Origin: Armatimonadota bacterium
GTDB lineage: Bacteria > Armatimonadota > Fimbriimonadia > Fimbriimonadales > GBS-DC
NCBI GenBank assembly: GCA_037444405.1
Contig: JBBIML010000012.1
Location: 1-64,000, forward strand
Length of the DNA: 64,000 nucleotides
Reading direction: 5' to 3'
Below the pieces are notes generated by a model. That model worked only from the letters and a program-made list of their open reading frames with translations, made no database searches and was not told where the DNA came from. Below, piece by piece: positions 33,679 to 51,614 of the stretch. The translations under genes and the position numbers were made by a program. How positions within the stretch are numbered: position 1 is the first letter of the stretch; each line of letters begins with the position of its first letter.

Positions 33679-33746
33679 TGGATTGCTGAAGCCGTGCTTC
33701 AGCAGTCCAAAGTCATGGATTGCTGAAGCCGTGCTTCAGCAGTCCA
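33679..33746. repeat. Two identical 31-nt palindromes in tandem
   Basis: TGGATTGCTGAAGCCGTGCTTCAGCAGTCCA at 33679-33709 and 33716-33746. The second encodes the GT9 C-terminus GLLKHGFSNP. Confidence 0.85.
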
Positions 33747-34834: not shown

Positions 34835-34958
34835 CAGAGTGAGATTTTACCCATTCAACCGGGCTGTAGCCAGTGGTCCCGTGCCCGCTCCACCCGCGCG
34901 GACCGCAACGGACGCAGCCCCAAACGCAACGCGCCCCCACGACAGACCCGCCCCTGTG

Positions 34959-35034
34959 TTGCAATTTCGTTTCCGGAACACCGGAAATCGCATCGGGTGG
35001 ACTATACTGGGGATGAGGAGGTATTTGTCCAATG
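34959..35034 (+). promoter_or_regulatory. Promoter/RBS block shared with HAF gene at 37706
   Basis: TTGCAATTTC...AAATC..GGG.GGA.TATACTG..GAT..GGAGGTAT aligns without gaps to 37635-37703. Confidence 0.7.
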
Positions 35035-35353
35035 AAACATGACCTACGCCAATCTGCTCACGGACGGCTCGCACCTGACCAATGCAAACGCCATCAGCCC
35101 CGACGGGCGCTACATCGTGGGGAATGGCTACAACGCCGCCACAGGGCGTGACGAAGGGTATTTGCTGGACACCTGGCGCACGGGCGACACCAACGGCGAC
35201 GGCTGTATTGATGACGCTGACCTGCTAACGGTGCTGTTCGCCTTCGGCACGCCGGGCACAGGCTCCACGCGCCACGAGGACATCAACAGGGATGGCATCG
35301 TGGACGATGCCGACCTGCTGGAGGTGTTGTTCCACTTCGGCAGTGGATGTTAG
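35032..35353 (+). pseudogene. Internally deleted HAF-repeat/dockerin-tail gene
   Basis: SD and ATG at 35032 are joined out of frame to the last blade and tail (TYANLLT...LLDTWRTGDTNGDGC...FGSGC). Signal peptide and most blades are missing. Confidence 0.8.
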
Positions 35354-35356
35354 CGC

Positions 35357-35407
35357 CCTCACCCCCCTCTCCCCCGCCGGCGGGAGAGCGGGTACAGGTA
35401 AGGGGGC
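35357..35407. repeat. Intergenic CCCTCTCC..GGAGAG element
   Basis: CCCTCACCCCCCTCTCCCCCGCCGGCGGGAGAGCGGGTACAGGTAAGGGGG. Confidence 0.65.
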
Positions 35408-35479
35408 AAATCAGAACCTCAATCCCCACCATCGGGCGAAAAAGTGTGCTATAATAAGACTGGTATCGTCAAGAGAGGA

Positions 35480-36177
35480 CAGAATGGTCTCAATTTCGCC
35501 GAGACTGGGGCGGCGGATGCGCGCCTGTTTCTTGCCGCCGGGGGGAATGTGGGCATCGGAACGAGTAGTCCCAAAGAACGCCTGCACAATACCGGCGACT
35601 GCTACGGCCGAGGGCATCTCTGGCTGTATGCCTTCGAAAGCGATGGACAGAGCGGCACGGCTTATCTGCAGGCACGGGACGACTCCACGACTTCGAGCAT
35701 TACCCTGCGCTTGCGTACCAAGAATGGCAGTAGCCTGACCGACGCGATGCACATCACGCCAGCGGGTAATGTCGGCATCGGCACCAACAGCCCCACTGAA
35801 AGGCTGCATGTGTACGGCAACATTCGGGTTGCCGATCGACAGGCGAAATCGGCTGGGACAGCTCCAGCCGCCGCTATAAAGAGAACATCACCCCGCTGGA
35901 AGACGATTTCGCCAGAATCCTGCCTTTGCAGCCGAAGACCTACACTCGCATCGGCGGCGATCCCAACCGCTGGGAAATCGGCTACCTCGCGGAGGAGGTG
36001 CATGACCTGGGGCTGCATCGTCTGGTGGAGTACGACCTGCAGGGTCGCCCCGATGGGGTGAACTACGAGAAGATGGTGCTTTATCTCAACGAGGTCATCA
36101 AGCAGCAACAGGCGCGTATCGCCGCCCTGGAGCGACGCGTATCGGAGCTGGAAGCCCGCAAACCGAGCCAGCGGTAA
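35480..36177 (+). pseudogene. Fibre-like protein remnant with C-terminal peptidase S74 (intramolecular chaperone) domain, frameshifted
   Basis: Two GNVGIGT.SP.ERLH repeats. A frame change near 35835 leads to GEIGWDSSSRRYKENI..L....ARI..LQP..Y...GYLAEEV...VNYEKM...coiled coil. Confidence 0.8.
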
Positions 36178-36185
36178 ACACGCAC

Positions 36186-36222
36186 GGCACGGGCATCGGG
36201 TGCATCCACCGATGCCCGTGCC
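36186..36222. terminator. 14-bp hairpin between convergent genes
   Basis: GGCACGGGCATCGG-N9-CCGATGCCCGTGCC. Confidence 0.6.
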
Positions 36223-36267
36223 AGAACCAGCAAACGATGGAGGTGGATAGTGATTCGCGTTGTGCCT

Positions 36268-37575
36268 TCAGCTGCTATGGGTCTGCTGCAGACGTTCGAT
36301 GACGCGCAGTGTTCGCTGAATCATGTGCTGCCGCGCAATCTGCTCTGCCTGCACGAGTGCGGATCGCGCTTGCTCCCGATTGCCCAGCGCGCGGCAGATT
36401 TCGTACAGCACGATCAGGTAGGTTGCCTGCGTCGCCGGGAGCGGGTTCTCTGGGGGTTTCAGGATTTCCAGCGCCTGGTGGGGCTGCCCCACGCGGCACA
36501 GCACCAGCGCACGCGACACCCGCGCGTGCTGATGCTCCACAGTGCTGTCCGAGCGCTGAATCATCTGGAACCCCTGCTCGGAAGCGCAGAGGGCTTCATC
36601 ATACCGATGCGCCTCCGAATAAAACTCGGACATCTCGCGATAAAACCATGAGGCATGCTCCACCGAGTGGCTGATTTGCGGCAGCCAGTCCTGCAGGATC
36701 TCCGCCGATTCGAGCAGGTGCGCCGCGCCTCTGTGCGACTCCGCGTAGCTGTGAGCGATGGCTGTGATGAACCATGCGGCGCTGCGTGGGAAGCCGCGCT
36801 CGCGCTCCAGCAGGTGCAACCCGCGATAGCCATATCGCTCCGCGTCCTGAACGCGCCCGTGCAAGCTATGCCACTGGCAGCAGAGGGTATAGACCTCGCG
36901 CAGCAGTTCGGCGTGATGGGGGCACTGACGCACATGCCACCACGCCTGCGCCTCCAGCGCGAGCAGGCGCAGCTCCATCCCCTCCGTGACGCCCTGCCAG
37001 ATTAACTGCCGCATCTGATCGATGCGCATTTTCAGCATGGCGGCGGATGCGTGCGGCGTCTGGGCGTCTGGCGGCTCCAGCCAGAGCGGGCGCGTGAGAA
37101 TGAACGCGACCTCCTCCACGCTCGCCTGCAGCACATAGCACAGCATATGCAGGTGTTTCTCGGAAGGCAGGGTCTGCGAGCGTTCCCAGCTGCGCACGCT
37201 CCGCTCCGACACCGCCAGCGCAGTAGCGACCTGCGCGACGCTCCAGCCGCGTCGCCGACGCAACACCCCCAGCAAATCACCCAGCAAGGGGGGATACGGC
37301 TCGCCCGAGGGATGCGGCTGCTGCTGGGCGAGCTGCTGGAGTGTCCACAGGGCGCGCGGCGCGTTCAGCAGGCGCAACGCCTCCAATTTTTCCTCTGGTG
37401 AAACGTCCAGCGCCTGCAGCACCTGCTCCAGTTCGGGTATCGACGGACGGGTCAGTTCCCGCTCCCAGCGGTTCAGGGTGCTGGAGGACACACGGGCGCG
37501 CTGCGCCAGCGCGTGCTGCGAAAGCCCCCGTCGCTGCCGGGCTTGCCGAATCCACACCCCGATGGTCGGAACCAT
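36268..37575 (-). CDS. XRE regulator: two HTH_3 domains plus helical TPR-like C-terminus (paralog 1)
   Basis: RQRRGLSQHALA...STLNRWE; L.APRA linker; GDLLGVLRRRRGWS...SWERS...PS; helical repeats. Confidence 0.85.
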   Translation of the reverse strand: MVPTIGVWIRQARQRRGLSQHALAQRARVSSSTLNRWERELTRPSIPELEQVLQALDVSPEEKLEALRLLNAPRALWTLQQLAQQQPHPSGEPYPPLLGDLLGVLRRRRGWSVAQVATALAVSERSVRSWERSQTLPSEKHLHMLCYVLQASVEEVAFILTRPLWLEPPDAQTPHASAAMLKMRIDQMRQLIWQGVTEGMELRLLALEAQAWWHVRQCPHHAELLREVYTLCCQWHSLHGRVQDAERYGYRGLHLLERERGFPRSAAWFITAIAHSYAESHRGAAHLLESAEILQDWLPQISHSVEHASWFYREMSEFYSEAHRYDEALCASEQGFQMIQRSDSTVEHQHARVSRALVLCRVGQPHQALEILKPPENPLPATQATYLIVLYEICRALGNREQARSALVQAEQIARQHMIQRTLRVIERLQQTHSS

Positions 37576-37705
37576 TGACGCCCCCTGCTATTGTACCGCT
37601 TTGGCTGCTCTCTACACCATCCCACGGCGTCGTTTTGCAATTTCACTTCCAGCATACCCCAAATCACAGAGGGCGGATTATACTGATGATACGGAGGTAT
37701 GCGTC

Positions 37706-38959
37706 ATGCGAACGGTACGATGGATGTGGATGACAACTTTGGTCGCTCTGGCACTAAGCGGGATGCTCGGCGCAGGGAACCCGGTCCATGCCCAGAGCCT
37801 CGCCTGGCTGGGCACATTCGGCGGCAGTGAGAGCATGGCTTTTGGCGTCTCGGCGGACGGTGCGGTGGTCGTTGGCATGGCACGCAACACCAGCAATCGG
37901 ATGCGCGCCTTTCGCTGGACGCAAAACGATGGCTTGCAGGACCTCGGCACATTCGGCGGTAGTGAGGGTGCGGCTAATGGCGTTTCCGCGGACGGCGTGG
38001 TGGTCGTTGGCGGTGCAGCCGACGCCAGCGGTCGCTGGCGTGCCTTCCGCTGGACACAGGGTGGCGGCATGCAATCCCTCGGCACGCTCGGCGGCAGTGA
38101 GAGTGTAGCTTTCGGCGCTTCGACATACGGCAGTGTGATCGTCGGCTGGGCCTATAACGCCTACGGCTGGTTGCACGCCTTTCGCTGGGAGAATGGCGTG
38201 ATGCATGACCTCGGTACGCTAAGCAATTCTGAGGGCTGGTGGAGCGCAGCTTATGGCGTATCGGGAAGCGGGAGCGTGGTCGTTGGCGAGTCAGGCAGCT
38301 CCTCTCAGCGGCGCGCCTTTCGCTGGACGCAGAGCGGCGGGATGCAAAACCTCGGTGCATTCGGCGGCACTCAGAGCTTGGGTAATGGCGTCTCGGCGGA
38401 CGGGCGCGTGGTTGTCGGCGCAGCCCGCAACGCCAGCGGTCAGCTGCGCGCCTTTCGCTGGACGCAGAGCGGCGGCTTGCAGGACCTTGGCACACTCGGC
38501 GGCACTGAAGGCTGGGCTTCTGCAGCCTCAGCGGACGGGCATGAGGTCGCCGGTATGGCACGCAACGCCAGTGGTCAGTGGCGCGCCTTTCGCTGGACGC
38601 CGCCGGCAGGCATGGTAGACCTGAACCAGGCCTACGCCCATCTGCTCACCAACGGCTCGCGGCTTGAGGAGGCCTACGCCATCAGCACCGACGGGCGCTA
38701 CATTGCTGGCATTGGCTACAACGCGGCGACGAGGCGCCGGGAGGCGTATCTGCTGGATACTGCGCCCAGCTGCATCCCGCACAGTGGCGATGTGGACGAC
38801 AACGGCTGCGTGGACGACGCCGACCTGCTCGCGGTGCTATTTGCGTTTGGCAACAGCGGCTCCAATCTGGGGCGTGTGGATGCCAACTGCGACAACGCCG
38901 TGGACGATGCCGATATGTTGGTGGTACTGTTCAACTTTGGGCAGGGTTGCGACGGCTGA
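37706..38959 (+). CDS. Secreted HAF-repeat beta-propeller protein with dockerin-like tail
   Basis: Signal peptide VHA-Q; repeated VSADG.VVVG...RAFRWT..GG..LGT.GG; tail GDVDDNGCVDDADLL...FNFGQGC. Confidence 0.88.
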   Translation: MRTVRWMWMTTLVALALSGMLGAGNPVHAQSLAWLGTFGGSESMAFGVSADGAVVVGMARNTSNRMRAFRWTQNDGLQDLGTFGGSEGAANGVSADGVVVVGGAADASGRWRAFRWTQGGGMQSLGTLGGSESVAFGASTYGSVIVGWAYNAYGWLHAFRWENGVMHDLGTLSNSEGWWSAAYGVSGSGSVVVGESGSSSQRRAFRWTQSGGMQNLGAFGGTQSLGNGVSADGRVVVGAARNASGQLRAFRWTQSGGLQDLGTLGGTEGWASAASADGHEVAGMARNASGQWRAFRWTPPAGMVDLNQAYAHLLTNGSRLEEAYAISTDGRYIAGIGYNAATRRREAYLLDTAPSCIPHSGDVDDNGCVDDADLLAVLFAFGNSGSNLGRVDANCDNAVDDADMLVVLFNFGQGCDG

Positions 38960-39003
38960 GAGAAGACAATCGCCCCTTCACAAAGCAAGGACGGTGGAGA
39001 CAC

Positions 39004-40275
39004 ATGATGAAACAGATGAGATTCAGTTCGGGAAAATCGGCGCCGCAGAGATTGCAGGCGCGAGGAGGGCTGTTTGTGCTGGCGCTGAGCGGGATGCTCG
39101 GCGCAGGGAACCCGGTCTATGCGCAACGGCTCACCTGGCTCGGCGTGCTACCGGGTGGAAGCTTCAGCGGGGCGAACGGAGTCTCCGCCGATGGGACCGT
39201 GGTGGTCGGGAGAGCCGATATTGCCAGCGGCAGTTATCGCGCCTTTCACTGGACGCAAAGCGGCGGCATGCAGAACCTCGGCACACTCGGCGGCGACTAT
39301 AGCGATGCGTGGGGAGTCTCCGCTGACGGGCTCGTGGTCGTTGGCGAGGCAGACAACGGCGCTAATCTGTCACGCGCCTTTCGCTGGACGCAAAGCGGCG
39401 GCATGCAGGGTCTTGGCACGCTCGGCGGCAGTGCAAGCCGGGCATTTGGCGTCTCAGGCAACGGGGCTGTGGTGGTCGGTATGGCAACCAACGCCAGCGA
39501 CCGTTGGCGTGCTTTTCGCTGGACGCAAAGCGGCGGCATGCAGAACCTCGGCACGCTCGGCGGCGACTATAGCGCTGCCATTAATGTCTCTGCCGATGGC
39601 GCAACGGTGGTCGGCGAGGCAGACAACGCCAACGACTATACCCGTGCCTTCCGCTGGCGGCAAAGCGGGGGAATGCTCAATCTCGGTGTTTTCCAGGGCG
39701 GCGATTCCAGCACCGCTTATGGCGTCTCGTCCGATGGCAATGTCGTGGTGGGCGAGTCCTATAACTCCCAGCAGCGAACGCGCGCCTTTCGCTGGACCCA
39801 GAGCGGTGGCATGCGAGACCTCGGCACGCTGGGTGGCAGTGAGAGTGGGGCTGCAGGGGTTTCCGCTGACGGCACTATCGTGGTCGGTTGGGCGGATGAC
39901 GCCAGCAATACACAGAATGCCTTTCGCTGGACGCAAAGCGGCGGCATGCAGAACCTGAACACCCTCTACTCCGCCCTGCTAACGAATGGCTCGCGACTGA
40001 TCAACGCGAACGCCATCAGCCCCGACGGGCGCTACATCGTGGGGAATGGCTACAACGCCGCCACAGGGCGTGATGAAGCGTACCTGTTAGACACCCGTTG
40101 CACGCCACGCGACGGCGATGTGGACGGCGACGGCTGCGTGGATGACGCCGACCTGCTCGCGGTGCTGTTCGCCTTCGGCGCGACGGGCGTCAACCCCGCC
40201 GATGTGAACTGCGACGGCACCGTAGACGACGCCGACTTGCTAATCGTGTTGTTTAACTTCGGAAATGGGTGTTAG
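39004..40275 (+). CDS. Secreted HAF-repeat beta-propeller protein with dockerin-like tail
   Basis: Same architecture; shares the signal-peptide end ALSGMLGAGNPV(H/Y)AQ with the 37706 gene; ends FNFGNGC. Confidence 0.88.
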   Translation: MMKQMRFSSGKSAPQRLQARGGLFVLALSGMLGAGNPVYAQRLTWLGVLPGGSFSGANGVSADGTVVVGRADIASGSYRAFHWTQSGGMQNLGTLGGDYSDAWGVSADGLVVVGEADNGANLSRAFRWTQSGGMQGLGTLGGSASRAFGVSGNGAVVVGMATNASDRWRAFRWTQSGGMQNLGTLGGDYSAAINVSADGATVVGEADNANDYTRAFRWRQSGGMLNLGVFQGGDSSTAYGVSSDGNVVVGESYNSQQRTRAFRWTQSGGMRDLGTLGGSESGAAGVSADGTIVVGWADDASNTQNAFRWTQSGGMQNLNTLYSALLTNGSRLINANAISPDGRYIVGNGYNAATGRDEAYLLDTRCTPRDGDVDGDGCVDDADLLAVLFAFGATGVNPADVNCDGTVDDADLLIVLFNFGNGC

Positions 40276-40311
40276 CGCCCGTCTTCGCGCAGAACAGAAG
40301 GAGGTCTGACA

Positions 40312-40397
40312 ATGAAACGCATAATGCTCTAACAAGGTCATCAAGCAGCAACAGGCGCGTATCCGAGTTGGAAGTCCGCAAAACGAGCCAGCGGTAA
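40312..40397 (+). pseudogene. Collapsed remnant of S74-fibre gene (start joined to last codons)
   Basis: AAGGAGG + ATGAAACGCATAATG, then sequence nearly identical to 36088-36182 (GGTCATCAAGCAGCAACAGGCGCGTATC...CGAGCCAGCGGTAAACACGC). Confidence 0.75.
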
Positions 40398-40406
40398 ACA
40401 CGCTCA

Positions 40407-40441
40407 GCAGGGGCATCGGTAGATGCAGCCGATGCCCCTGC
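40407..40441. terminator. Hairpin homologous to 36186
   Basis: GCAGGGGCATCGG-N9-CCGATGCCCCTGC. Confidence 0.6.
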
Positions 40442-40475
40442 CAACACCCAAACAGCGATGGGGATGCTTCGCCCC

Positions 40476-40855
40476 TCAGCCGATAATCCCCTCTATCACG
40501 CGCCCGGCGACATCGGTCAGGCGGAAGTTGCGCCCCTGATACCAGTAGGTCAAGCGCGTGTGGTCAATCCCCATCAGGTGCAGGATGGTGGCGTGCAGGT
40601 CATGCACATGCACGGGGTTCTCCACGACCTGATAGCCGAGTTCGTCGGTAGCGCCGTAGGTGATGCCGGGCTTGACCCCGCCGCCTGCCATCCAGATGGT
40701 GAAGGCGCGCGGGTGGTCGCGTCCCAGAACAGAAACACCACCCGTTTCGCGCGTGGTTTGAAATGGGGCGGTTTCGGGGGCAAGTGGGTCCGAGGCAGCA
40801 AACAGTTTTTCATTCATCAGCGCGTTCAACACCAGCGCACCAAGTCCGTGCAGGG
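40476..40855 (-). pseudogene. DUF1501-family remnant (N- and C-termini joined, frameshifted)
   Basis: [15 protein letters not shown] / [16 protein letters not shown] in different frames, followed directly by [45 protein letters not shown]...FRLTDV.G. Confidence 0.8.
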
Positions 40856-40963
40856 CTGGTGGTGGGGACGCGTTCGCAGTTCGTGTTGGGGATGACGACG
40901 GGGTGGGGGTTGTATTCGGATGTCCACTGGTTGCCCTCGTTGCGTCGGCAAGCGCAGCGGTAT

Positions 40964-41134
40964 GTGCCGCGCGCGGGCGATGTGGACGGCAACGGCTGCG
41001 TGGATGACACCGACCTGCTCACGGTGTCGTTCGCCTTCGGCAGCGACAACCCTGACGCCGATGCGAACGGCGACGGACTCGTGGACGACGCCGACCTGCT
41101 AACGGTGCTGTTCAACTTCGGAAATGGGTGCTGA
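40964..41134 (+). repeat. Orphan dockerin-tail segment; 171-bp direct repeat of 48906-49076
   Basis: 6 mismatches in 171 nt by my alignment; no plausible gene start upstream. Confidence 0.85.
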
Positions 41135-41281
41135 AGTCTCCCATCTCGCATACAAAAGGGTGGGAAGCGAGGGCTTCCCATCTTTTTTATCAGGGGTGGC
41201 TCTGTTGCTTCTGGGAGCCTTTGCATGCTATAATTGTGTTCAGAATCGCTGGGGACATCTTTCAAAACAGAGAGGTGGAAC

Positions 41282-42589
41282 ATCAACAGCTTTGCGGAGT
41301 ATCTGGGGCATTTACGGCGTGCGCGCGGCATGACCATTCGTCGCCTGGCTCAGCTGGCAGGGATCCATCCTTCCACACTGAGCCGCTGGGAAGCGGGGTT
41401 TGTGCGCCCTTCGCTGTACGAGTTCGATGCCCTCATGAACGCGCTGGGAGCGAGCGATATCGAGCGGCGTTGCGCCCTGGAGCGGATTGACGCGCCCCGC
41501 GCACTGTCCCGTCTGCACGCGGCACAACCCGCTCCGGCAGGTTCGCAAGCGAAGCCGCATATTCCCCTTCCCGGCGACCTGTTGCGCGCGATGCGCCAAC
41601 GCAGAGGCTGGACCTTAGAACAGACCGCCAAGCAGATGCACATCAGTATCGCCACTCTCTACCGCTGGGAACACTCGGAAGCGTGGCCCTCCGAAGAGCA
41701 ACTGCATCAGCTCTGTGCCCTGCTTCAGGCGCACTTTCAAGAACAGGTTGCGCTCTCCGCAGGGCGCCTCCATTTCCATCCTGAGGTTCAGGCGTTTCCA
41801 TCCCGCCCGGAGGAGCTGGAAGAGCTGATGCGCCAGATTATTTTCGCCGAGGTAGCGGTTGATCGCGCGCTTGCGGATCTGTACTTTTTATCTCTGGAAC
41901 GATTTCTATGGAGGCTGAGTCAACGCAGCGAAGCGGGGCGTCGGCTCCTGATTGACGCCTATGTGTGCCACTGCCGCCACCTGCTTCAGGATGCACGCCT
42001 GATAGACGCGCAGACCCCAGCCGCGCGCGCAATGCACCGGATCGGTGGCTGGGAGAACCCGCGTGCGCACTGGTTATGGATCGTGCATGCCGCCGCGAAA
42101 GGCGCTGCCGAGAAGCGCGCCCAGCCCTATCCCACCGCAGGGATTCGAATCTTGCAGGATTGGCTCCCCCTCGCCGCTGCCACTGCACTCCAGTATGAGG
42201 CGTGGTTCCTGCGTGACATCGCCGAATATATGAGCCTCACGCATGCCACGAGCGCCGCCGTGGAAGCCAGCGAGTATGCGGTCAGCAAAGGGCTGGGGAT
42301 GGGCGACGACTGGAATGTGTGGCTCTCCCATGCGGAGGTCCTGCTCAATGCAAAGCGCCCGCACCAGGCGCTTGAAGTTGTCGAGCGCCATCTGCAATTC
42401 GCATGGTGCGAAGACTCGGTGCTGATGCAGCAAGTGCATGAGGCGGGAATCTACGCCCGCGCTCTTCACGGAGTCGGGCGGCGTCAGGAAGCCCTCCTCT
42501 GGGTGGAACGCGCTCAACAGCTGGTACAGGCGAACAACCTCTGGCAGGTGCGGAACCGTGTAGAGGCGATCGCCTCGCAAATCAGGTAG
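41282..42589 (+). CDS. XRE regulator HTH-HTH-TPR-like (paralog 2); start codon uncertain
   Basis: LRRARGMTIRRLA...STLSRWEAG, IDAPRA, GDLLRAMRQRRGWTLEQ..RWE. The SD GAGGTGG precedes an in-frame ATC at 41282. Confidence 0.8.
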   Translation: MNSFAEYLGHLRRARGMTIRRLAQLAGIHPSTLSRWEAGFVRPSLYEFDALMNALGASDIERRCALERIDAPRALSRLHAAQPAPAGSQAKPHIPLPGDLLRAMRQRRGWTLEQTAKQMHISIATLYRWEHSEAWPSEEQLHQLCALLQAHFQEQVALSAGRLHFHPEVQAFPSRPEELEELMRQIIFAEVAVDRALADLYFLSLERFLWRLSQRSEAGRRLLIDAYVCHCRHLLQDARLIDAQTPAARAMHRIGGWENPRAHWLWIVHAAAKGAAEKRAQPYPTAGIRILQDWLPLAAATALQYEAWFLRDIAEYMSLTHATSAAVEASEYAVSKGLGMGDDWNVWLSHAEVLLNAKRPHQALEVVERHLQFAWCEDSVLMQQVHEAGIYARALHGVGRRQEALLWVERAQQLVQANNLWQVRNRVEAIASQIR

Positions 42590-42725
42590 GCAACGCGACA
42601 GGGTGTTGCAATTTTCCGAAAAATTACGCAGGGAAGACCCTCCCGTGCTATGATAGTGCTGTGTATCACGGGAGGACACCATGCGATGCTATTCTGGGCG
42701 TTTGGCAGATCTCCATACGGAGGCA

Positions 42726-45700
42726 ATGAAGCGTACTCGCTTCAGCATGCTTGCTGTTATATCTGCGCAACTCCTTCTATGCCTCGTCGTGAACGGGTTC
42801 GCGCAGCAGAACCGCGAGGTCTATACCTACAACCTGACCTTCACCACCACCAACCAGTGCATGTGGCAACCGGGCACCTGCAACATTGGCTACTCCTACT
42901 TTCTGGGGGGTAGCTTCAACGGCTCGCGTTCGGGCGGCGGCTACTTCACCATTCCCGTGCTGGGCGAGTTCGGCGCATCGGGCGGTGCATCGGCGAGCGG
43001 TCGGCTCGGACTCCAGTTCGATGCCTACGCTACGGGCGGGGATGTGAGTGTCGTTTACCCGATGCAGCTGACTCTTTCCTTCCCCACCCGCGAGTACTTG
43101 GTACCCGGCGGGGTTGCCGTTATCCAGTCCAGCTACAGGCTCCAGCAGGGCGCGCGTCTTGGCACCACTTCGCCCACCGCGCGCTTTGTGATGTCGAGCG
43201 TGCTGGATTTTGCTGGCTCGTTCAGCGTCCGTGCGCGCGCCTTCAGCGAGGACATTATCAACACTTCGGTAGACATCCCGCGCGTGAACTATGTGCAGGA
43301 GCTGATCAACACGGACAATCTGAACATCTGGGATCGGGATTTCGATCTCATTTCGAACTATCCGGGATTGCTCACCCTGAATGTTCACCGCCCGTTGATT
43401 ATTACAGAAGGGGGCAACCCTTTTTCTCCGACGGAGACGCGCCTGACCTCCACTGGCAGCGACCGCTTTGTTACGCTCACAGGCGACCTGACCGCCGCGA
43501 CCATCTATCTGATCCAGACGCTGCTGGGGCTGCCGCCGAACAACTACCTGCGCAAGAGCATTTCGTATCCCGGGCTGGAGGCGGGCTATTCGCTGCTGCA
43601 GACGGAGGTTCGGACAGGACTGGGGTTCCGTCAGGACTTTGAGTTCGTGCCGCGCCCGAAAATCCGACTGACCTTCACGGATGGGCGCGCGCCCGTCGAG
43701 TTCTACGCGGGCGAAAGCGTCGCCATCCAGCTCCCCATGTCGGGCGCGCTGGGCGTGAACGCCTCCGTGGTCATGGACAACCAGTTCACCAACATCACCT
43801 ATCTGACCCTTTCGGGCGGCATCTACTTCCTGCCGCTCTATGTGTACGCCAGCGGGAAGCTGGGAAGCATCTCGCTGGGCAGCTTCGAGTTCAAGCCTGT
43901 GGACGAGATGGGCATCGGCAGCACCCTGCCCATCCGCATCTTCAATCGCACCTTTACGCTGAGCGGATTCGCCGATCAGGTAGCGGGCGACCTGACCGTG
44001 CGGGCGAACACCGACGCCACACCGGGCATCTTTTACAGCGTGAACTACAACAGCCCTACCTTCGCACGGGTGTACGACCCCAATACGACCATCTATCTGG
44101 AGTGCCGTCCCGTCAACTACTTCACCAGCCAGTCGCGGGTGGTGTTTCGGGGCACAGAAGTCAGCACGACGCTGGTGCAACCGAATGTGGTGAGCGCAGT
44201 CATCCCTGCCAGCCTGCTCACCACGATAGGCAACTACACGCTGTTTGTGCGCACGCCGGGCAAGCCCGACACGAACACCCTTGCATTCGCCGTTGGCTAC
44301 AGGCACCCTCTGATACGGCAGGTGCGATGCAACTGCCTGCCAGGACAGGATTACAGAGGCTACACCATCGGCGTCAATTTTCCAGAGAATGACCTGGTGC
44401 TGGACCTGACCACCACGAATCCGACTTACTATCGAAACGGTGTGACGGAGGTCTACTGGAACGATCAGGCAGTCACTATCGAGCAGATGGGGCTCGGGAG
44501 CGAGGATCCTACCCACTTCATGCGCATTCGGGTACCCAATCGGTATCTATGGCAGCCGGGCACGATGGTGCTGAAGGTCGTGAATAGGGGTCCGGGCGGC
44601 GGCGAAAGTATTTACAATATCTATGCTTCCTACCCGCCGCTTCAGTGGAATGAGGACTACGATTGCCGGCTGAATCCCCGCCGCGGGCGCTCCATCGGCA
44701 CGCAGGGCATCACGATTCGTGTGCGCGGAAGCTGGTTCATCAAGGGCGTCACCGAGCTGATTCTGGTGGAGGGTGCCGATTGGTACCCCCCAAATAACGC
44801 GATCCCTCTGCCCACCCAGTATGTGAGCCAGGCAGAGCTGGTGGGGCAGATTCCGGGCGACCTGATGCAGACGCCCCGTAGTGTGTTGATTGGGATGCGT
44901 CATCCCGACGGGCGTGGGGGCTACATCACTTCAGACGGTGGCGAGAGGTTTGAGGTGCTGAACCCGATCCCTGTCGTGGAGCGATGCGAACCGAATCTGG
45001 TCAATCGGGGCGATGCGCCGCCCAGCTATGTGGAGGTGCGCGGCGTGAGCTTCCGTCCTGGCTGTCAGGTCGTGTTCAACGGCGCGCCGCTGGCGACCAC
45101 GCGCCTTTCGGACACCCGCCTGCGCTTCACCCTGCCGGCGGGCACGATGAACACGGGGCGTGTGAACAGCGTGAAGGTGCGCAACCCGCAAACGGACGGC
45201 ATCGATTCCAACGAGGAATGGTTCACCGTGCGCAACCCCGCGCCCACGCTGACCGCACTCAACCCCAGCAGTGTTACTACCTTCGCGCCTGCGACGCGGG
45301 TGGACATCGCGGGCAGCGGCTTCGAAAACACGGCGCGTGCCTACTTTGGGGGCACGCCGGTGAGTACCACCTTTGTGAACACAACGCTTGTGCGCGCCCT
45401 CATCCCCGCCAGCCTGCTGCGGAATGCTGGCACCTTCTCCATCACCGTGCGCAACGAGCCGAGCGTCGACTCCAACGCGCTCCCCTTCACGATCAGCGAC
45501 GCGCGCCTCATCTATGTCAGCCCGCAGGGCAGCGACGCGAACGACGGACTGAGCTGGGCAACGGCAAAACGCACGGTGCAGGCGGGCATCAACGCTGCCG
45601 TGCCCTCCTCCGGCGGCGCGCAGGTGTGGGTCAAAGCGGGCCTCTACAATGAGCGCATCATCCTGCGAGCTAATGTGCATGTGTACGGCGGCTTCGCAGG

Positions 45701-48700
45701 CAACGAGACCAGCCGCAGCCAGCGCAACCTGTTCGCCAATGAGAGCGTCCTCGATGGGCAGTCGGGCGGTGCGGTGGTAACGGTGAACGCGGGCACGGTC
45801 AACGCCACCCTCGACGGCTTCACCCTGACCAACGGCAACCGCCCTGTCGGAGGCGCGGGCGTGCTGATTAATGGCGACTGTAGCGTGGTCGTGATTTCCA
45901 ACAACCTGATTATCAATAACCGCTCGCTGGATGTCTCAGGCAGCGGTGCGGGCATCCTGGTGCAGGGGACGAACCCGTTCGGCGCTGATGTGCAGATTCT
46001 CAACAATGTCATCGTGCGCAACGCCGCCTACAACAGCGCTGCCATCTACCTGCGCTACGCGAGCGCGCAACTCATCAACAACACCATCGCCTACAACACC
46101 AGTGTCAGCTCCACCACAGGCGCCGCGCTCTACTGCTCCGATAGCACCAGCACATTACTTGCCAACAACATCGTGGCGTTCCAGGGGAACGGTCCCGGCA
46201 TTGATCGCAAGAATGTGTCCACCGCGACGGTGACCCTGCGCAACAACTGCGTGTATAACCCGTCCACCGCGAACTACCGCAACATCGCCGCCAGCGCGTA
46301 CGCAAGCGACATCGCTGTGGATCCGCGCTTTGTGGACGCGAGCCACGATGACTTCCATCTGGGCGACTCGCCCTGCATCGATCGGGGCAGCGCGTCCGAC
46401 GCGGCAGGTATTCTGGTCGATTACGATGGGCAGGCGCGGGTGAACGGCGTTACCATCGATATCGGCGCAGATGAGGTGTACGCAGGCGCGGTTGTGCTGA
46501 CCGTGCCGCCCGCCACCGGCGCAATTCGCACCCCGGTGAACCTCACAGCGACCCTGCGACGAACCGATAACAACCTGCCGATTGCCGGTCAGCGGCTGGA
46601 GTTCTTCGTGCAGGACACCTCCATCGGCGCCGCCGACACCCAGAGCAACGGCACGGCGACGCTGAGCTACCTCCCGCCCGAATCGCTGGGCACAGGTGTG
46701 AAATCGCTGCGGGTGGAGTACGCGGGCAACACCGCCTATTTACCTGCCTCTCAGACAACCACGCTCACGGTGAATCGCGGCGTCTCCATTTTGACGCCCA
46801 TCATTGAGCCGACGCAGGTCTCGGTCTCGCAGCAGATGACGCTGGGCGGCAGGCTCTCGGACGCCACTGGCGCCCCGATTGCGAACCGCACGCTGAACAT
46901 CCTCTGGGACGGCGCTCCCATCGCCAGCGGCAACACCGACTCCAGCGGCGTCTTCCGCACCGCATACACCATCCCGCGCGGCACCTCACGAGGCAACCAC
47001 ACCGTGCGCGTGGAATTTCTGGGCGATCCCCTGTTCTTCGGCAATGTAGCCGCCAATACTGTATCCGTGGTCAACAGCGCGCCCGAAGCGTCCCTTGCTG
47101 GAGCGAACCTGCTGTTCAACGGCTCGAATACCGCCGTACAGTTTGACCACCGCCCCGAACTGAACGCCTATCCGCTCACGGTCTCCTGCTGGGTGCGCAC
47201 GCTGGACATGGCGGACCTCGAAGAACGCGGCATCGTCAACAAATATGGGAGTGGCTCGCTTAACGGCTACCAGCTATACCTGCGCAACGGGCGAGTGTAC
47301 GCATGGTACTTCCGCAACGGAAGCAACTACATCTGGGATGGCGGCTTGGGGCTGGATGGCGGGGCGATTGCCGACGGCGCGTGGCACCATATCCAGTTTA
47401 CGGTGGATGCCAGCGGCGGGCGGCTCTATGTGGATGGCGTGTTGCGCGCCAGCCGCGCGTGGACAGGTTCACCAGGCGCATGCACGACGACCACGCCGCT
47501 GCTGATCGGACGCTATCCCGGCACTCCGCTGAATGGGCACTTCGACGGCGAGATCGACGAGGTGAAACTCTGGAGCCGCGCCGATGTCGGAACCGATGAG
47601 AAGAGCCGTAAGGCGAACCTCGTCGGCGACGAGACCGGCTTGCTCGCCTATTTCCGATTCGATGAACGCTCTGGCAACCAGACTGTGGACGCCGTATCGG
47701 GTGGGGCGGCGACGCTCCTCAACACGCCCGTCTGGCAGACCTCCAGCGCGCCCGTAGAGACCCTCTATGTCGTGGACGGCGTGCCGCGCACAGTGCGCCT
47801 GAACGCTTACGACGCCAACGAGGACGCGCTGAGCTACAACCTGCTCACCACCCCTGGAAGCGGACAGTGGCTTGGCGGTGTATTCCCCAGCGCGACCTTC
47901 CTGCCTCCTTCTGGCGGCGTTTCAGGCGCGTTCAGCTATCGCGTCAGCGACGGGATTGCCAACAGCAACACAGCGTCGGGAGCCATTCAGCGCACGAATG
48001 CACCGCATGCCGGTCTGGGCGGCTCGATGCGCTACTTCAACGGCAACACCAACTCGAACATCACCGTGCCGGGCTTCGGCAATCGCGTTTCCAGCGGTGA
48101 GCTGACCATCGAGTTCTGGCAGCTTGTCGCCTCGCCCCGCTACGCCGCCACTATCGACATCAACGGCGGTTCTGCAACCAACCGCATCGTGGTGCATAGT
48201 CCCTGGAGTGATGGCAGGGTCTTCTTCGACTTCGGCAACATCACCACGCAGGGGCGACTTTACTACACGCCGCCCCAGCCAATCGTCGGCACCTGGCAGC
48301 ATTTCGCCTTCGTGGTGAGCCAGAGCGGGAACTACATGCGCATCTACCGCAACGGCGTTCTGGAAGCCCAGAAGACCGGCATGACTCCCTTCACCCCGGG
48401 CAACTACACGCTGGGGATTGGATTCGGAAACAGCGGTTTCGGGGGCTTTAATGGGTTCCTCGACGAGGTGCGCATCTGGAACCGTGCGCGCACCCAGCGT
48501 GAAATCCAGCGCGATATGCACGCGGTGCTGCAGGGCAACGAGCGCGGGCTGATCGGCTACTGGCGCCTCGATGAGTGGGGCAACAGTGCCACCACCGCCG
48601 TCGACTCGTCACCCAGTGGGGCGAACGGAACCTTCAGCAACGTGCGCTGGCTTGGCTCCACCGCGCCCCTTTACACGGTGCATGTGCCCGCTGGCGAGCG

Positions 48701-49076
48701 CACCTTCACGCTGGGCGCCTTCGCCGAATCTCTCACCCAGCCAGACCAGTTGACCTACCAGATCGTGGAGAACCCCGCCGACGGCACGCTGAACCTGTCG
48801 GGCAATCAGGCGACCTATACGCCCGATCAACCGGGCACCTACACCATGCGATACACCGTCAGCCATTCGGCAGCGGCTCTGAACACGGCGCGTGTATGGC
48901 TGGTGGTGCCGCGCGCGGGCGATGTGGACGGCAGCGGCTGCGTGGATGACGCCGACCTGCTCACGGTGTTGTTCGCCTTCGGCAGCGACAACCCTGACGC
49001 CGATGCGAACGGCGACGGACTCGTGGACGACGCCGACCTGCTAACGGTGCTGTTCAACTTCGGCAGCGGGTGCTGA
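42726..49076 (+). CDS. Large secreted multidomain adhesin-like protein (IPT/TIG, beta-helix, Ig-like, 2x LamG, dockerin-like tail)
   Basis: Signal peptide GFA-Q; NP.P.L..L.P IPT repeats; YVSPQGSDANDGLSWATAK; DIGADE; WHHI...LYVDG...FDGEIDEVKLW and WQHFAFV..FNGFLDEVRIWNRA; ends FNFGSGC. Alternative ATG at 42681. Confidence 0.88.
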   Translation: MKRTRFSMLAVISAQLLLCLVVNGFAQQNREVYTYNLTFTTTNQCMWQPGTCNIGYSYFLGGSFNGSRSGGGYFTIPVLGEFGASGGASASGRLGLQFDAYATGGDVSVVYPMQLTLSFPTREYLVPGGVAVIQSSYRLQQGARLGTTSPTARFVMSSVLDFAGSFSVRARAFSEDIINTSVDIPRVNYVQELINTDNLNIWDRDFDLISNYPGLLTLNVHRPLIITEGGNPFSPTETRLTSTGSDRFVTLTGDLTAATIYLIQTLLGLPPNNYLRKSISYPGLEAGYSLLQTEVRTGLGFRQDFEFVPRPKIRLTFTDGRAPVEFYAGESVAIQLPMSGALGVNASVVMDNQFTNITYLTLSGGIYFLPLYVYASGKLGSISLGSFEFKPVDEMGIGSTLPIRIFNRTFTLSGFADQVAGDLTVRANTDATPGIFYSVNYNSPTFARVYDPNTTIYLECRPVNYFTSQSRVVFRGTEVSTTLVQPNVVSAVIPASLLTTIGNYTLFVRTPGKPDTNTLAFAVGYRHPLIRQVRCNCLPGQDYRGYTIGVNFPENDLVLDLTTTNPTYYRNGVTEVYWNDQAVTIEQMGLGSEDPTHFMRIRVPNRYLWQPGTMVLKVVNRGPGGGESIYNIYASYPPLQWNEDYDCRLNPRRGRSIGTQGITIRVRGSWFIKGVTELILVEGADWYPPNNAIPLPTQYVSQAELVGQIPGDLMQTPRSVLIGMRHPDGRGGYITSDGGERFEVLNPIPVVERCEPNLVNRGDAPPSYVEVRGVSFRPGCQVVFNGAPLATTRLSDTRLRFTLPAGTMNTGRVNSVKVRNPQTDGIDSNEEWFTVRNPAPTLTALNPSSVTTFAPATRVDIAGSGFENTARAYFGGTPVSTTFVNTTLVRALIPASLLRNAGTFSITVRNEPSVDSNALPFTISDARLIYVSPQGSDANDGLSWATAKRTVQAGINAAVPSSGGAQVWVKAGLYNERIILRANVHVYGGFAGNETSRSQRNLFANESVLDGQSGGAVVTVNAGTVNATLDGFTLTNGNRPVGGAGVLINGDCSVVVISNNLIINNRSLDVSGSGAGILVQGTNPFGADVQILNNVIVRNAAYNSAAIYLRYASAQLINNTIAYNTSVSSTTGAALYCSDSTSTLLANNIVAFQGNGPGIDRKNVSTATVTLRNNCVYNPSTANYRNIAASAYASDIAVDPRFVDASHDDFHLGDSPCIDRGSASDAAGILVDYDGQARVNGVTIDIGADEVYAGAVVLTVPPATGAIRTPVNLTATLRRTDNNLPIAGQRLEFFVQDTSIGAADTQSNGTATLSYLPPESLGTGVKSLRVEYAGNTAYLPASQTTTLTVNRGVSILTPIIEPTQVSVSQQMTLGGRLSDATGAPIANRTLNILWDGAPIASGNTDSSGVFRTAYTIPRGTSRGNHTVRVEFLGDPLFFGNVAANTVSVVNSAPEASLAGANLLFNGSNTAVQFDHRPELNAYPLTVSCWVRTLDMADLEERGIVNKYGSGSLNGYQLYLRNGRVYAWYFRNGSNYIWDGGLGLDGGAIADGAWHHIQFTVDASGGRLYVDGVLRASRAWTGSPGACTTTTPLLIGRYPGTPLNGHFDGEIDEVKLWSRADVGTDEKSRKANLVGDETGLLAYFRFDERSGNQTVDAVSGGAATLLNTPVWQTSSAPVETLYVVDGVPRTVRLNAYDANEDALSYNLLTTPGSGQWLGGVFPSATFLPPSGGVSGAFSYRVSDGIANSNTASGAIQRTNAPHAGLGGSMRYFNGNTNSNITVPGFGNRVSSGELTIEFWQLVASPRYAATIDINGGSATNRIVVHSPWSDGRVFFDFGNITTQGRLYYTPPQPIVGTWQHFAFVVSQSGNYMRIYRNGVLEAQKTGMTPFTPGNYTLGIGFGNSGFGGFNGFLDEVRIWNRARTQREIQRDMHAVLQGNERGLIGYWRLDEWGNSATTAVDSSPSGANGTFSNVRWLGSTAPLYTVHVPAGERTFTLGAFAESLTQPDQLTYQIVENPADGTLNLSGNQATYTPDQPGTYTMRYTVSHSAAALNTARVWLVVPRAGDVDGSGCVDDADLLTVLFAFGSDNPDADANGDGLVDDADLLTVLFNFGSGC

Positions 49077-50378
49077 AAACGCCTGCAGTTCGCCCTTTGC
49101 CCAGTTGTACCACCATGGCATGCCGTGCGGAGCGAGCATGACATGGATCTGCTGGAGGCGCAGCCACCAGTGCTGCGCCTCCGTATACAAACCGCACTGA
49201 CACAGCACCCGAATCCAGATGAGCGCTTTGTTGATGCGCTGCTGAACGCCCTGCTCTTCAGGGTCCGCCAGTGAGGGGTTATCGGTGAGCAGTTGGAGCG
49301 CCTGCTCGCTCTGACCCAGATTGGCCAGCACCAGCGCGTCCGAGAGAAGGATGTTGGGGTCACCATCGCGCCATGGGTCGCTTTTGCGTCGGGCGATAGT
49401 GTGGGTCTCCACTGCCTCGTGGCGATGGCGTGAGAAGCTCAGGTACTCCGCACTGTTGCGCCAGAACCATGCGGCATGTTCAGGTGCGCACTGTTCCGCC
49501 GCGCAAAGCCAGCGCCGAAGGATGGTCACCCCTTCCAGCGGAATCATGCGCGGGTTGCATTCCGCTGCGCCTTTCGCCTGCGCATGCACGATATAGAACC
49601 AGTGGGGGCGCAGGGGTTCCGATCGGGGAATCAGGCGCAGGGCACGCTGAACGGATAGCTGCGCCTCATGCACCCGCGCCTGCTCCACCAGATAGCGGCA
49701 GTGATAGGCAAAGGCATCGATCAGCAGGCTCTTCGGGGCGCGGTTCACGCTCACCATCTGCCACAGACGCCCCTGAACACAGCGATAGAGCAGGTCGGTC
49801 ATCGCGGGGTCAATCGAGAGCCGGTCGGTTTTGACCGCTTCCAGCAGTTCTTCCATCTCGGCGGCGGACGCCACCTCGAAGGGCAACCAGGTCAGCACGC
49901 CGCGCCCGTTTTGAAGCGCATGATGCTCCGCCTCGCTCGCGCCCAGCACGGTGCACAGGCGTCCTAACTGCTCGTCGGAGGGCCAGCTCTCGGAACGCTC
50001 CCAGCGACTGACCGTGCTGACCGTCACGCCCACATGCAGGGCGACCTGTTCGAGTGTCCAGCCGCGCCGTCCCCGCAGCGCTCGCAACAGCTCGCCCCCA
50101 ATCGGGGCAGCGCCTGACGGCGAAGGCATACCTTCTCTTACCCCCACTGCCATCGGGGTCGCGCGAGGGGCATCCAGAAGTTGCCACGCCTGCGCACACT
50201 CGGTCTCAGTAGCCTGCAACGCGGTCAACACCGCCCGCAGCTCATAGACGCGCGGAGTAGTCGCTCCCGCTTCCCAGCGGCTCAGGGTGGAAGCATTCAC
50301 TCTGGCAGCACGCGCCAGCTGACGCAGCGACAGTCCCCGTGAGGCACGCATGCGACGCAAATGCTCTGCCAAAAACAC
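49041..50378 (-). CDS. XRE regulator HTH-HTH-TPR-like (paralog 3)
   Basis: LRRMRASRGLSLRQLA..STLSRWEAG, LDAPRA, GELLRALRGRRGWTLEQ..RWERSESWPS. GTG 50378 follows GAGGTG and TGTGGTATAAT. Confidence 0.83.
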   Translation of the reverse strand: MFLAEHLRRMRASRGLSLRQLARAARVNASTLSRWEAGATTPRVYELRAVLTALQATETECAQAWQLLDAPRATPMAVGVREGMPSPSGAAPIGGELLRALRGRRGWTLEQVALHVGVTVSTVSRWERSESWPSDEQLGRLCTVLGASEAEHHALQNGRGVLTWLPFEVASAAEMEELLEAVKTDRLSIDPAMTDLLYRCVQGRLWQMVSVNRAPKSLLIDAFAYHCRYLVEQARVHEAQLSVQRALRLIPRSEPLRPHWFYIVHAQAKGAAECNPRMIPLEGVTILRRWLCAAEQCAPEHAAWFWRNSAEYLSFSRHRHEAVETHTIARRKSDPWRDGDPNILLSDALVLANLGQSEQALQLLTDNPSLADPEEQGVQQRINKALIWIRVLCQCGLYTEAQHWWLRLQQIHVMLAPHGMPWWYNWAKGELQAFSAPAAEVEQHR

Positions 50379-50484
50379 ACCCCAACACCTCATCGACATT
50401 ATACCACAGGTCAGTTCAAAAATGCTCTTGAGAAACCCCTGATGCAGGGAACCATCGGTAAACGCGCAGGGTATAATAGATGTG

Positions 50485-50889
50485 ATGCCGTTGCACAGCA
50501 GGCACTGGTGGCGCATCGCGCTCTGGATGCTGATGGGCTGGCTGGGACTGGCACCGCTCAGCTGGCTGGCTGTGCATTCGTGCGACTGCTACCGACCTGC
50601 TCGCACCCACGCATGCTGTGCGTCATCCCCTGCAACGGGGCAGGCAGTCCCTGCGCCCCATCCGCGCAGCGATTGCCCGCATTGCCAGCTCTGTCAGGCA
50701 AGCCATCCGAACCCTGCCGTGCTGACGGGCGGGACGAATCTGCCGGACCAGAGCTTCACTCTACTGATGCCCCCGTTGCCGATGCAGGTGGTGGTACAAC
50801 CCACCCGCACCCCGCTTTATCACCCACCGATTCAACCCCTCATTCAGACCGCTTTCGAATGCTGGGCGCCGCGCGCCCCTCCTGTGTGA
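50485..50889 (+). CDS. DUF2946/CutF/CruR-like uORF with Cys motifs and C-terminal RAPP arrest motif
   Basis: Hydrophobic N-terminus, HSCDC, HACC, CPHCQLC, Pro-rich tail ending WAPRAPPV*. TATAAT lies 7 nt before the ATG. Confidence 0.75.
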   Translation: MPLHSRHWWRIALWMLMGWLGLAPLSWLAVHSCDCYRPARTHACCASSPATGQAVPAPHPRSDCPHCQLCQASHPNPAVLTGGTNLPDQSFTLLMPPLPMQVVVQPTRTPLYHPPIQPLIQTAFECWAPRAPPV

Positions 50890-50991
50890 GCATATAATCG
50901 CATCTGTCATCACCGCATCCTGCGGCGATGCGATTCGTTCACCTGAGTTTCACGCTCGTGAGACGAGCGCAGACAATCATCACACAGGAGG
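50878..50991 (+). promoter_or_regulatory. Anti-SD/SD pairing (translational attenuator)
   Basis: CCTCCTGTGTGA (50878-50889) is the exact reverse complement of TCACACAGGAGG (50980-50991), which holds the SD of the next gene. Confidence 0.75.
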
Positions 50992-51000
50992 AGATGAGCC

Positions 51001-51555
51001 ATGCAAAAAGCGATCTATGGGGCGCTGCTGAGCGCCGGAATGGTGCTGGTTTTAACGGGTCTGATGACCGCTCAACCGAAGCAGGAGCTTCGCACCGTCG
51101 CTATCCGGGTTGGCGGGCTGCACTGCGAGGGCTGTGTGGAGCCTGTGGTGAAGGGGCTTCAGCAGGTGCGGGGCGTGCAGTCAGCCCAGCTCGATTTTAA
51201 GACGGCGACGGCGATTGTGCGCTACGACGAGGCGCAGGTTGCCCTCTCGCAGGTCGTGCTGGCGTTGCCCAAAATCCCGCACGCGATGGGACCCAGCTCC
51301 CGAATGCGCTATTCGGGTCAGCTCGCGCTGAACCTGCAGAAAGGTGACGCGCAGAAAGTCGCGCGGGCTTTGCAGAAGGTCGCCGGCGTGCAGAAGGTCA
51401 CGGTCAACAAAAATACCCTGCTGATTCAGTTCAAGCCGAACGCTTCGGTGCGCTATGCGCAGCTGGAGCAGGCACTGAAAAAGGCAGGGGGCACGCTGGC
51501 ACCCGTGCAGGCAGCTGGCGAGCAACACCAGCACAACCATGAGCATCATCATTAA
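51001..51555 (+). CDS. Exported heavy-metal-associated (HMA) domain protein
   Basis: Signal-like N-terminus, GLHCEGC, second degenerate HMA fold, His-rich tail. Confidence 0.82.
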   Translation: MQKAIYGALLSAGMVLVLTGLMTAQPKQELRTVAIRVGGLHCEGCVEPVVKGLQQVRGVQSAQLDFKTATAIVRYDEAQVALSQVVLALPKIPHAMGPSSRMRYSGQLALNLQKGDAQKVARALQKVAGVQKVTVNKNTLLIQFKPNASVRYAQLEQALKKAGGTLAPVQAAGEQHQHNHEHHH

Positions 51556-51614
51556 AGCCAGAGCAGGGGCAGTGTCTTCACAGGGGGCACTGTCCCTGCT
51601 GGAGGGAATAAACA

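Follow-up and report, generated by a model that had tools for sequence, protein, structure and literature searches.

What do three related regulators control when each of them lies beside genes for exported proteins that end in the same tail? This question is raised by positions 34,950-50,400 of a stretch of 64,000 nucleotides (nt), hereafter the window, on contig JBBIML010000012.1 of a hot-spring Armatimonadota bacterium (assembly GCA_037444405.1). The source genome, referred to as G000, comprises 40 contigs and 2.68 Mb and is 98.9% complete; C6, C8, and C9 are its contigs, other G numbers denote related genomes, and L numbers denote individual extracted loci or contigs. An earlier note on this DNA had taken the regulators, here R1, R2, and R3, as dedicated ligand-responsive activators of interchangeable surface modules, clustered in an island. 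Our sequence comparisons point to a real regulator family, and its predicted regulon of adhesin-like exported proteins is well supported. The family-level sample contains 29 genomes, 16 with and 13 without the regulator, and exported or signal-peptide-like starts were judged by hydropathy. The features that carry the argument are as follows.

36268-37575, minus strand: regulator R1, 435 amino acids (aa), XRE-XRE-TPR-like, divergent from the HAF genes
41282-42589, plus strand: regulator R2, 435 aa, co-directional with and upstream of the giant gene; start likely ATC behind a GAGGTG Shine-Dalgarno sequence
49041-50378, minus strand: regulator R3, about 445 aa from an inferred GTG start; its gene overlaps the giant gene's tail
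34956-35008, plus strand: R1-class promoter box, TTGCAATTT at 34959, -10 at 35003-35008, preceding a relic
37632-37684, plus strand: R1-class promoter box, TTGCAATTT at 37635, -10 at 37679-37684
42603-42654, plus strand: R2-class promoter box, TTGCAATTT at 42606, -10 at 42649-42654
37706-38959, plus strand: HAF propeller 1, 417 aa, six TIGR02913 repeats, signal-peptide-like N-terminus, dockerin-like tail
39004-40275, plus strand: HAF propeller 2, 423 aa, six TIGR02913 repeats, signal-peptide-like N-terminus, dockerin-like tail
42681-49076, plus strand: giant adhesin-like protein, 2131 aa, with TIG/CoaZ repeats, a beta-helix-like region, Ig-like domains, two LamG domains, and a dockerin-like tail

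At each of the three boxes, TTGCAATTT is followed by a -10 element, a Shine-Dalgarno sequence, and a start, a combination found in G000 at these sites only. The boxes share a core, TTGCA(A/T)TTT, which is joined to a class-specific part. The R1 class reads TTGCAATTTCnnyTCC (its subclass R1b ends in …CGATTCCGAA), the R2 class reads TTGCAATTTTCyGmAAAA, and the R3 class reads TTGCATTTTnnnGCAAATT…GCATnCGCG and resembles repeats of about 10 nt. These patterns came first from a search over 41 genomes, where the architecture recurs both beside regulators and at unlinked sites. Within the family-level sample, all 8 genomes that encode an R1-clade protein have the R1 pattern and none of the 21 others does; the exact R3 pattern is present in all 8 genomes that carry R3 (including the broken copy of G013) and in 1 of the remaining 21. 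Neither pattern is present in the 13 regulator-less genomes, and the core was seen in none of 8 fibre promoters sampled from them. Position weight matrices trained without G000 retrieve two R1, one R2, and three R3 sites in that genome, with score gaps of 35/33 versus 16.5, 41.5 versus 22.8, and 56/56/48.5 versus 15, respectively. Out of sample, a box in G334 predicted an adjoining regulator, which was then found. In metagenomes, the box class agrees with the nearest regulator class for all 13 family-type regulators whose relevant flank is available, two truncated and two distant copies being excluded and several of the loci being near-duplicates of genomes. The strongest point comes from swaps. 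Fibre genes that are 69-73% identical in their N-terminal domain have an R1b box in G001 and G022, which lack R3, and an R3 box in genomes with R3; giant genes that are 68-70% identical have an R2 box beside R2, and in G005 an R1 box beside R1. By these comparisons, the box class follows the regulator and not the target family. Hence the modules fit the description "interchangeable" of the earlier note, as one target family is paired with different regulator and box classes across genomes.

The spacing between box and promoter is equally strict. In 40 of 40 distinct boxes, the distance from the first core T to the -10 is 43 nt for R2 and R3 and 44 nt for R1, with offsets of 38-49 searched. Where regulator and target diverge, a free search over offsets 15-69 places the best -10 at 43/44 on the target side at 16 of 20 loci; the other four have a tied hexamer at 43/44 on that side, and a 43/44 -10 was found in G008, too. 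On the regulator side, the offsets of the best -10 vary from 16 to 46. Fixed phasing toward one promoter agrees with an activator that contacts polymerase. We propose that R1, R2, and R3 would each bind their own box class, that the bound regulator would activate a few genes whose adhesin-like products are exported and probably held at the surface, and that activation would be triggered when the C-terminal solenoid binds some cue. We hold this model as a whole with moderate confidence. Direct binding of regulator to box is very likely, and, once binding is granted, activation is probable because the spacing is fixed toward the target and variable toward the regulator's own promoter. The two helix-turn-helix (HTH) domains may divide the work. 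HTH1 would read the shared TTGCA(A/T)TTT core and HTH2 the class-specific part, since the recognition helix of HTH1, ST(L/V/I)(S/N)RWE, is nearly constant in all regulator classes and that of HTH2 differs alongside the second part of the box, being HTH1-like in R3 and very different in R1 (ERSVR).

The regulators themselves constitute an apparently undescribed family; each has a pair of DNA-binding domains and is predicted to adopt a sensor-type fold. R1, R2, and R3 are 31-39% identical to each other in pairs, and are the only tblastn matches to one another in the 2.68 Mb of G000, in line with the three paralogues of the earlier note. Its reading of two XRE HTHs per protein is borne out by Pfam, in which each regulator has two stretches above cut-off (PF13560 HTH_31/PF01381 HTH_3, 75-96 bits), and all three proteins contain the APRA...G(D/E)LL linker and the common C-terminal patterns as described there. 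The AlphaFold2 model of R1, built on a 43-row alignment, has a mean predicted local distance difference test (pLDDT) score of 89.5 and a predicted template modeling (pTM) score of 0.82. It is composed of an HTH at residues 5-70, a linker, a second HTH at 98-161, and a 13-helix solenoid at 174-434. Foldseek ranks PlcR first and second, followed by BKLC, ComR, LGN, and AimR (E 4e-5 to 8e-4, 10-15% identity). VIA lists APPBP2 (Z 19.8), domain III of MalT (19.5), phage Rap (17.3), TSK, AimR (17.0), and NprR (15.8). Model, Foldseek, and VIA thus agree on the TPR-like C-terminus that had been supposed from sequence, but generic TPR proteins score on a par with RRNPP members. Matches to TPR-type Pfam families are weak, with ANAPC3 above cut-off in R1 and TPR_14 below cut-off in R2. 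None of the three regulators reaches an NCBIfam family cut-off, and the ESM Atlas yields, by features, only generic HTH(-TPR) clusters of Actinomycetota and Chloroflexota and no named family. A homodimer prediction for R1 scores 0.00, which speaks neither for nor against a dimer. A quick tree gives support of 99 to an R1/R1b clade (9 rows from 8 genomes), 100 to the R2 clade, and 100 to the R3 clade (7 genomes). The start of R2 is unusual. No ATG, GTG, or TTG is located at the expected position, and in the orthologues of G000, G009, and G012 an ATC follows GAGGT(G/A). R2 likely initiates at this ATC because a Shine-Dalgarno sequence precedes it and, in G009 and G012, an in-frame stop lies two codons upstream. 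The R2-clade regulator of G001 has an apparent GTA start, so that this clade lacks a canonical start there as well. Such non-canonical starts would hold regulator levels low. The literature searched contains no description of the family, subscription papers and bioRxiv supplements being outside its reach.

The predicted targets in G000 are few. R1 would act at the 37635 box, which precedes HAF propellers 1 and 2, and at the 34959 box, which precedes the relic; R2 would act at the 42606 box in front of the giant gene. Both HAF genes are intact, and their products score 194-198 bits against TIGR02913, above its cut-off. The R3 boxes of G000 all lie outside the window, at C6:29927, C8:115874, and C9:201425, each on the minus strand. 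The C6 target consists of an S74 fibre (PF13884, 61.6 bits) and a double HAF propeller with a tail, the C9 target consists of a non-S74 fibre (no PF13884 match) and a 134-aa tailed partner, and the C8 box is an orphan whose target is gone. Most fibre genes of a genome may have no box, as 1 of 9 fibre matches is boxed in G012.

The tail is a duplicated D-x-D/N-x-D-G-x-(V/I)-D-D-A-D-L-L repeat that often ends in GC. It is found in 83 open reading frames (ORFs) of G000, at the C-terminus in 79 of them, and five relatives have 63-133 matches. Two G000 ORFs, C8:112886-113701 and C9:122045-122911, have the repeat near the N-terminus. With dockerin type I (PF00404) and the GC-type dockerin anchor NF041540, the tail shares a duplicated C-terminal repeat on exported proteins. 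The G000 tails are borderline for PF00404, three of them scoring 23.2, 21.9, and 19.1 bits at a cut-off of 22.9 and two others having no listed match, and they stay below the cut-off of 29 for NF041540 with 16.9-18.8 bits. The tail would hold the proteins at the surface. No literature joining Fimbriimonadales with dockerin was found. The predicted regulon covers just 6 of the 83 tail ORFs, and G003 has 62 tail matches without regulator or box; the regulators as masters of the whole tail system were therefore rejected.

Adjacency of regulators and tail-bearing genes, on which the earlier note was built, holds within and beyond the window. Each of R1, R2, and R3 is 0-71 nt from a tail ORF. Among the related genomes, 19 of 28 regulator copies have a tail ORF within 300 nt, compared with 2.4% for a random 1.3-kb interval of G000; the genomes of the sample are mutually related, and these neighbourhood counts are descriptive rather than a statistical test. 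A further 5 of the 28 lie within 340 nt of a homolog of the giant gene or of the fibre or its partner, the tail of which is cut off, split, or distant, and the remaining four have neither a tail ORF nor a giant or fibre homolog nearby, two of them being at contig ends. Together with the paralog-specific boxes that track the regulators, this neighbourhood supports dedicated regulators of exported surface modules. The family also extends further. A profile search retrieved 668 representatives of 50%-identity clusters at E<1e-30 among 1.84 billion; their taxa are mostly unnamed, and one of 10 checked representatives is named Chthonomonadaceae. Where homologous proteins and records are named, they belong to Fimbriimonadales or Armatimonadota. 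In a phylum-wide sample, 29 of 301 genomes carry the regulators, concentrated in a few families, with five candidates per genome scored. Of the distant copies, 19 of 40 diverge from an ORF with a signal-peptide-like start, as judged by hydropathy and eye with no matched control and with four flanks shorter than 600 nt. These exported neighbours include PEP-CTERM, HAF, SdrD-type, CoaZ-repeat, dockerin, and secretin proteins. Four distant regulator-bearing genomes have no such tail at E<=1e-12, so the association of regulators with exported proteins extends beyond the tail and probably predates it.

Several observations weigh against our proposal. G010 has two R3-like boxes and no R3-clade regulator was found in it, the genome being 87% complete and containing two divergent regulators. 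Many R1 and R2 boxes adjoin their own regulator, so that only unlinked copies and swaps are informative; the patterns were counted in the same, related genomes from which they were derived, some metagenome loci nearly duplicate these genomes, and the regulator clades rest on the quick tree. No cohesin (PF00963) was found in G000, at a sensitivity at which 2 of 14 control genomes match and a divergent partner is possible. About half of the distant copies have no exported neighbour, and the core is weak in distant families, with 8 of 20 sites at p<0.05 versus shuffles. Matches to -35 of at least 5 of 6 positions occur at 0 of 40 boxes versus 31 of 560 control sites; we dropped the poor -35 as a sign of activation, as it is not distinctive. 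The R3 box, moreover, reaches over the -35 position, which is compatible with a repressor. The regulators might indeed bind the same boxes and repress until a TPR ligand releases them, as in many XRE repressors. Their HTHs best match the repressors SinR, P22 c2, and RstR, and several targets have a near-consensus -10. Against repression, the spacing is strictly fixed on the target side only, boxes of the R1 class stop short of the -35 position, and in G013 regulator and target decayed together, R3 (86% identical to that of G011) and its fibre both being frameshifted. The nearest HTH-TPR folds, PlcR, ComR, and Rgg, are activators. We consider repression unlikely. It is less probable still that the boxes are conserved promoters read by a sigma factor or global regulator and copied along with a cassette in which the regulators hitch-hike. 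Boxes do travel with duplicated 5' ends of fibre genes (the copies on C6 and C9 of G000 are identical), the orphan box on C8 persists, and the presence/absence pattern could stem from shared ancestry, but the box class follows the regulator within one target family, conservation is position-specific while spacer and flanks vary, and boxes are missing from all 13 regulator-less genomes.

A third alternative is true RRNPP peptide quorum sensing, with the peptide coming from an unlinked gene or from the signal peptides of the targets. In RRNPP systems, the peptide is generally imported by an Opp-type permease. The lengths of 435, 435, and about 445 aa and the TPR fold agree with this group, the top fold matches are RRNPP members (PlcR, ComR, Rgg2, NprR, AimR, and Rap belong here), and the solenoid has a weak sequence match to NprR (E 1.7e-5). 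The order of XRE HTH and TPR solenoid is the same, and so is the predicted control of adjacent and unlinked promoters via a short box. By the definition in PMC10075063, an RRNPP system pairs a TPR receptor of 250-500 aa with an adjoining gene for a secreted propeptide of only 10-100 aa, and PMC4794775 describes a conserved Asn on the concave TPR surface that holds the peptide backbone. Neither is found here. Around 22 regulators, 72 small ORFs follow a Shine-Dalgarno sequence at distances of up to 600 nt, and not one of them is both conserved and signal-peptide-like as a propeptide would be; the neighbours are large exported proteins. In an alignment of 182 sequences, Asn stays below 30% in every column after residue 165. 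A search for family-5 peptide-binding proteins (PF00496), the one importer family covered, has no match in G000 versus matches in 11 of 14 control genomes. The regulators further differ in having two tandem XRE domains, in belonging to a diderm phylum instead of the Firmicutes, and in being, in the case of R1, 8-15% identical to solved members. Because no propeptide ORF, conserved Asn, or PF00496 protein was found, the regulators resemble an HTH-TPR sensor yet are not an RRNPP system by the published definition, contrary to the RRNPP-type kinship suggested at the outset, and peptide quorum sensing appears very unlikely. For our activator model, a small molecule is a plausible cue by analogy with MalT and ComR. 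Domain III of MalT (PDB 1hz4), whose inducer is maltotriose, is the best bacterial VIA match of R1, with a root mean square deviation of 3.3 Å over 257 residues; R1 has neither its ATPase (NOD) module nor its LuxR HTH, the identity is 12%, and a shared solenoid fold proves no function. The sensor of this STAND activator binds a small-molecule inducer (PMC4381067 and PMC10427625), and activation of ComR by non-peptide metabolites is described in PMC12998947. On the predicted A helices of the solenoid, polar or aromatic residues at R1 positions 232, 310, 313-317, 347, 351, and 354 are candidate contacts for a ligand in the groove. Alternatively, the solenoid might bind another protein or play a structural role.

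As to how the locus came together, the remaining features of the segment are relics and debris.

35039-35353, plus strand: HAF relic, last HAF blade and dockerin-like tail in a 104-aa ORF, no signal peptide
35444-36177, plus strand: fibre relic, 3' portion of a gene for an S74-chaperone fibre, with frameshift (PF13884, 15.9 bits at a cut-off of 22)
36186-36221, no strand assigned: strong hairpin, likely a terminator, separating the fibre relic from R1
40331-40442, plus strand: fibre 3' end of about 66 nt (40331-40396) and a hairpin (40407-40442)
40476-40832, minus strand: debris, C-terminal fragment of a DUF1501 gene
40964-41135, no strand assigned: debris, orphan tail 97% identical to the giant-gene tail at 48906-49077

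The earlier note had recognized a repeated unit of promoter, HAF propeller, S74 fibre, and hairpin. Its first copy (34959-36222) is not intact. Promoter and Shine-Dalgarno sequence are preserved, but the ATG next to the latter (35032) does not share the frame of the 104-aa ORF, and the fibre is a frameshifted 3' fragment. In the second copy (37635-40441), the two HAF genes stand, the fibre is gone except for the 3' remnant of about 66 nt, and the DUF1501 fragment and the orphan tail follow. Nor does the idea of an island persist. The GC content of 0.60-0.64 equals the background, and in the single-contig genome G012 the orthologues of R1, R2, and R3 are dispersed at 0.38, 0.71, and 1.81 Mb. 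These two findings, together with the absence of R2 homologs from 50,697 phage and 72,556 plasmid records, speak against a mobile genomic island. The linkage of R1 and R2 is natural, since metagenome contig L199 has an intact R1-HAF-HAF-R2-giant-fibre cluster. In six genomes, R3 and a tail-coding sequence overlap; the tail belongs to a small partner gene in most of them, to a HAF gene in G002, and to the giant gene in G000. Recombination between tail sequences would be the simplest route that brings R3 beside the giant gene, and this position may also reflect misassembly at the 97%-identical tails. The local cluster likely arose through recombination and decay, helped by about 80 similar tail-coding sequences.

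The fibres have a layout comparable to that of Bdellovibrio MAT fibres (mosaic adhesive trimers, PMC10769870); common traits are a chromosomal gene, a signal peptide, an N-terminal domain that is conserved, and a tip that may or may not be of the S74 type. In MAT fibres, this domain is beta-rich, measures about 130 aa, and follows the signal peptide. Likened by layout alone, the fibres here differ in being co-transcribed with a dockerin-like-tailed partner and in standing, for some, under a dedicated regulator; no evidence of predation was seen in this system. Many fibres (L093 4900-7356, L078, and L088) end in a non-S74 C-terminal domain of about 150 aa without a Pfam match, and fibre tips and middles are mosaic between copies. 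Many fibre genes are followed by a gene for a 134-aa exported protein that starts with GGGYDLSWWTIDxGG and ends in the tail (L093 4499-4900 on C9 of G000, and orthologues). It has no match in Pfam or NCBIfam and is a candidate fibre anchor. At one shared chromosomal position, two species have an orphan R3 box (G000 C8:115874 and G002 C14:70738) whose target has decayed or been deleted. In G002, R3 boxes are scattered over seven sites, and G001 contains a box duplicated in tandem; all this hints at cassettes of box and fibre that are frequently moved and lost. Upstream of box-less fibre genes (L153, L158, L160, L163, L168, L169, and L174), a partly palindromic GTCTyGyAAGAC-like motif lies just before the -10, which suggests the site of another regulator; with the pattern tried, it is absent from G000.

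Gene regulation in Armatimonadota is almost unstudied, and the literature searched contains no relevant paper. A large regulator family hereby gains a concrete predicted regulon with exact boxes, spacing, and paralog-box pairs. If confirmed, the HTH-TPR (RRNPP-like) design would extend to a diderm phylum without peptide machinery, tandem XRE domains would diversify DNA specificity yet keep a common core site, and bacteria of hot-spring mats would use phage-tail-like fibres and adhesins in a condition-dependent way. The orthogonal regulator-box pairs of a thermophile could serve as useful parts. A more ambitious picture is a phylum-wide set of RRNPP-fold sensors without peptide genes, each paralog detecting a different outside cue (e.g. 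a peptide or glycan presented by a surface, a partner cell, or a prey cell) and switching on swappable fibres and adhesins via the two-HTH code, which together would make a modular sense-and-stick system; at this breadth the picture is speculative and rather unlikely.

Other genes lie on both sides of the segment. Upstream, the minus-strand gene at 32391-33437 encodes a response-regulator receiver that continues into a PilZ domain at the C-terminus, and between a response regulator-PilZ gene and a glycosyltransferase family 9 gene there is a near-perfect tandem duplication of 34 nt (33676-33746). Downstream, at 50482-53726 on the plus strand and divergent from R3, are a small Cys/His-rich ORF, a double HMA protein, and a heavy-metal P-type ATPase. 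These metal genes were rejected as part of the system, as the same neighbours occur beside R3 in G002 only.

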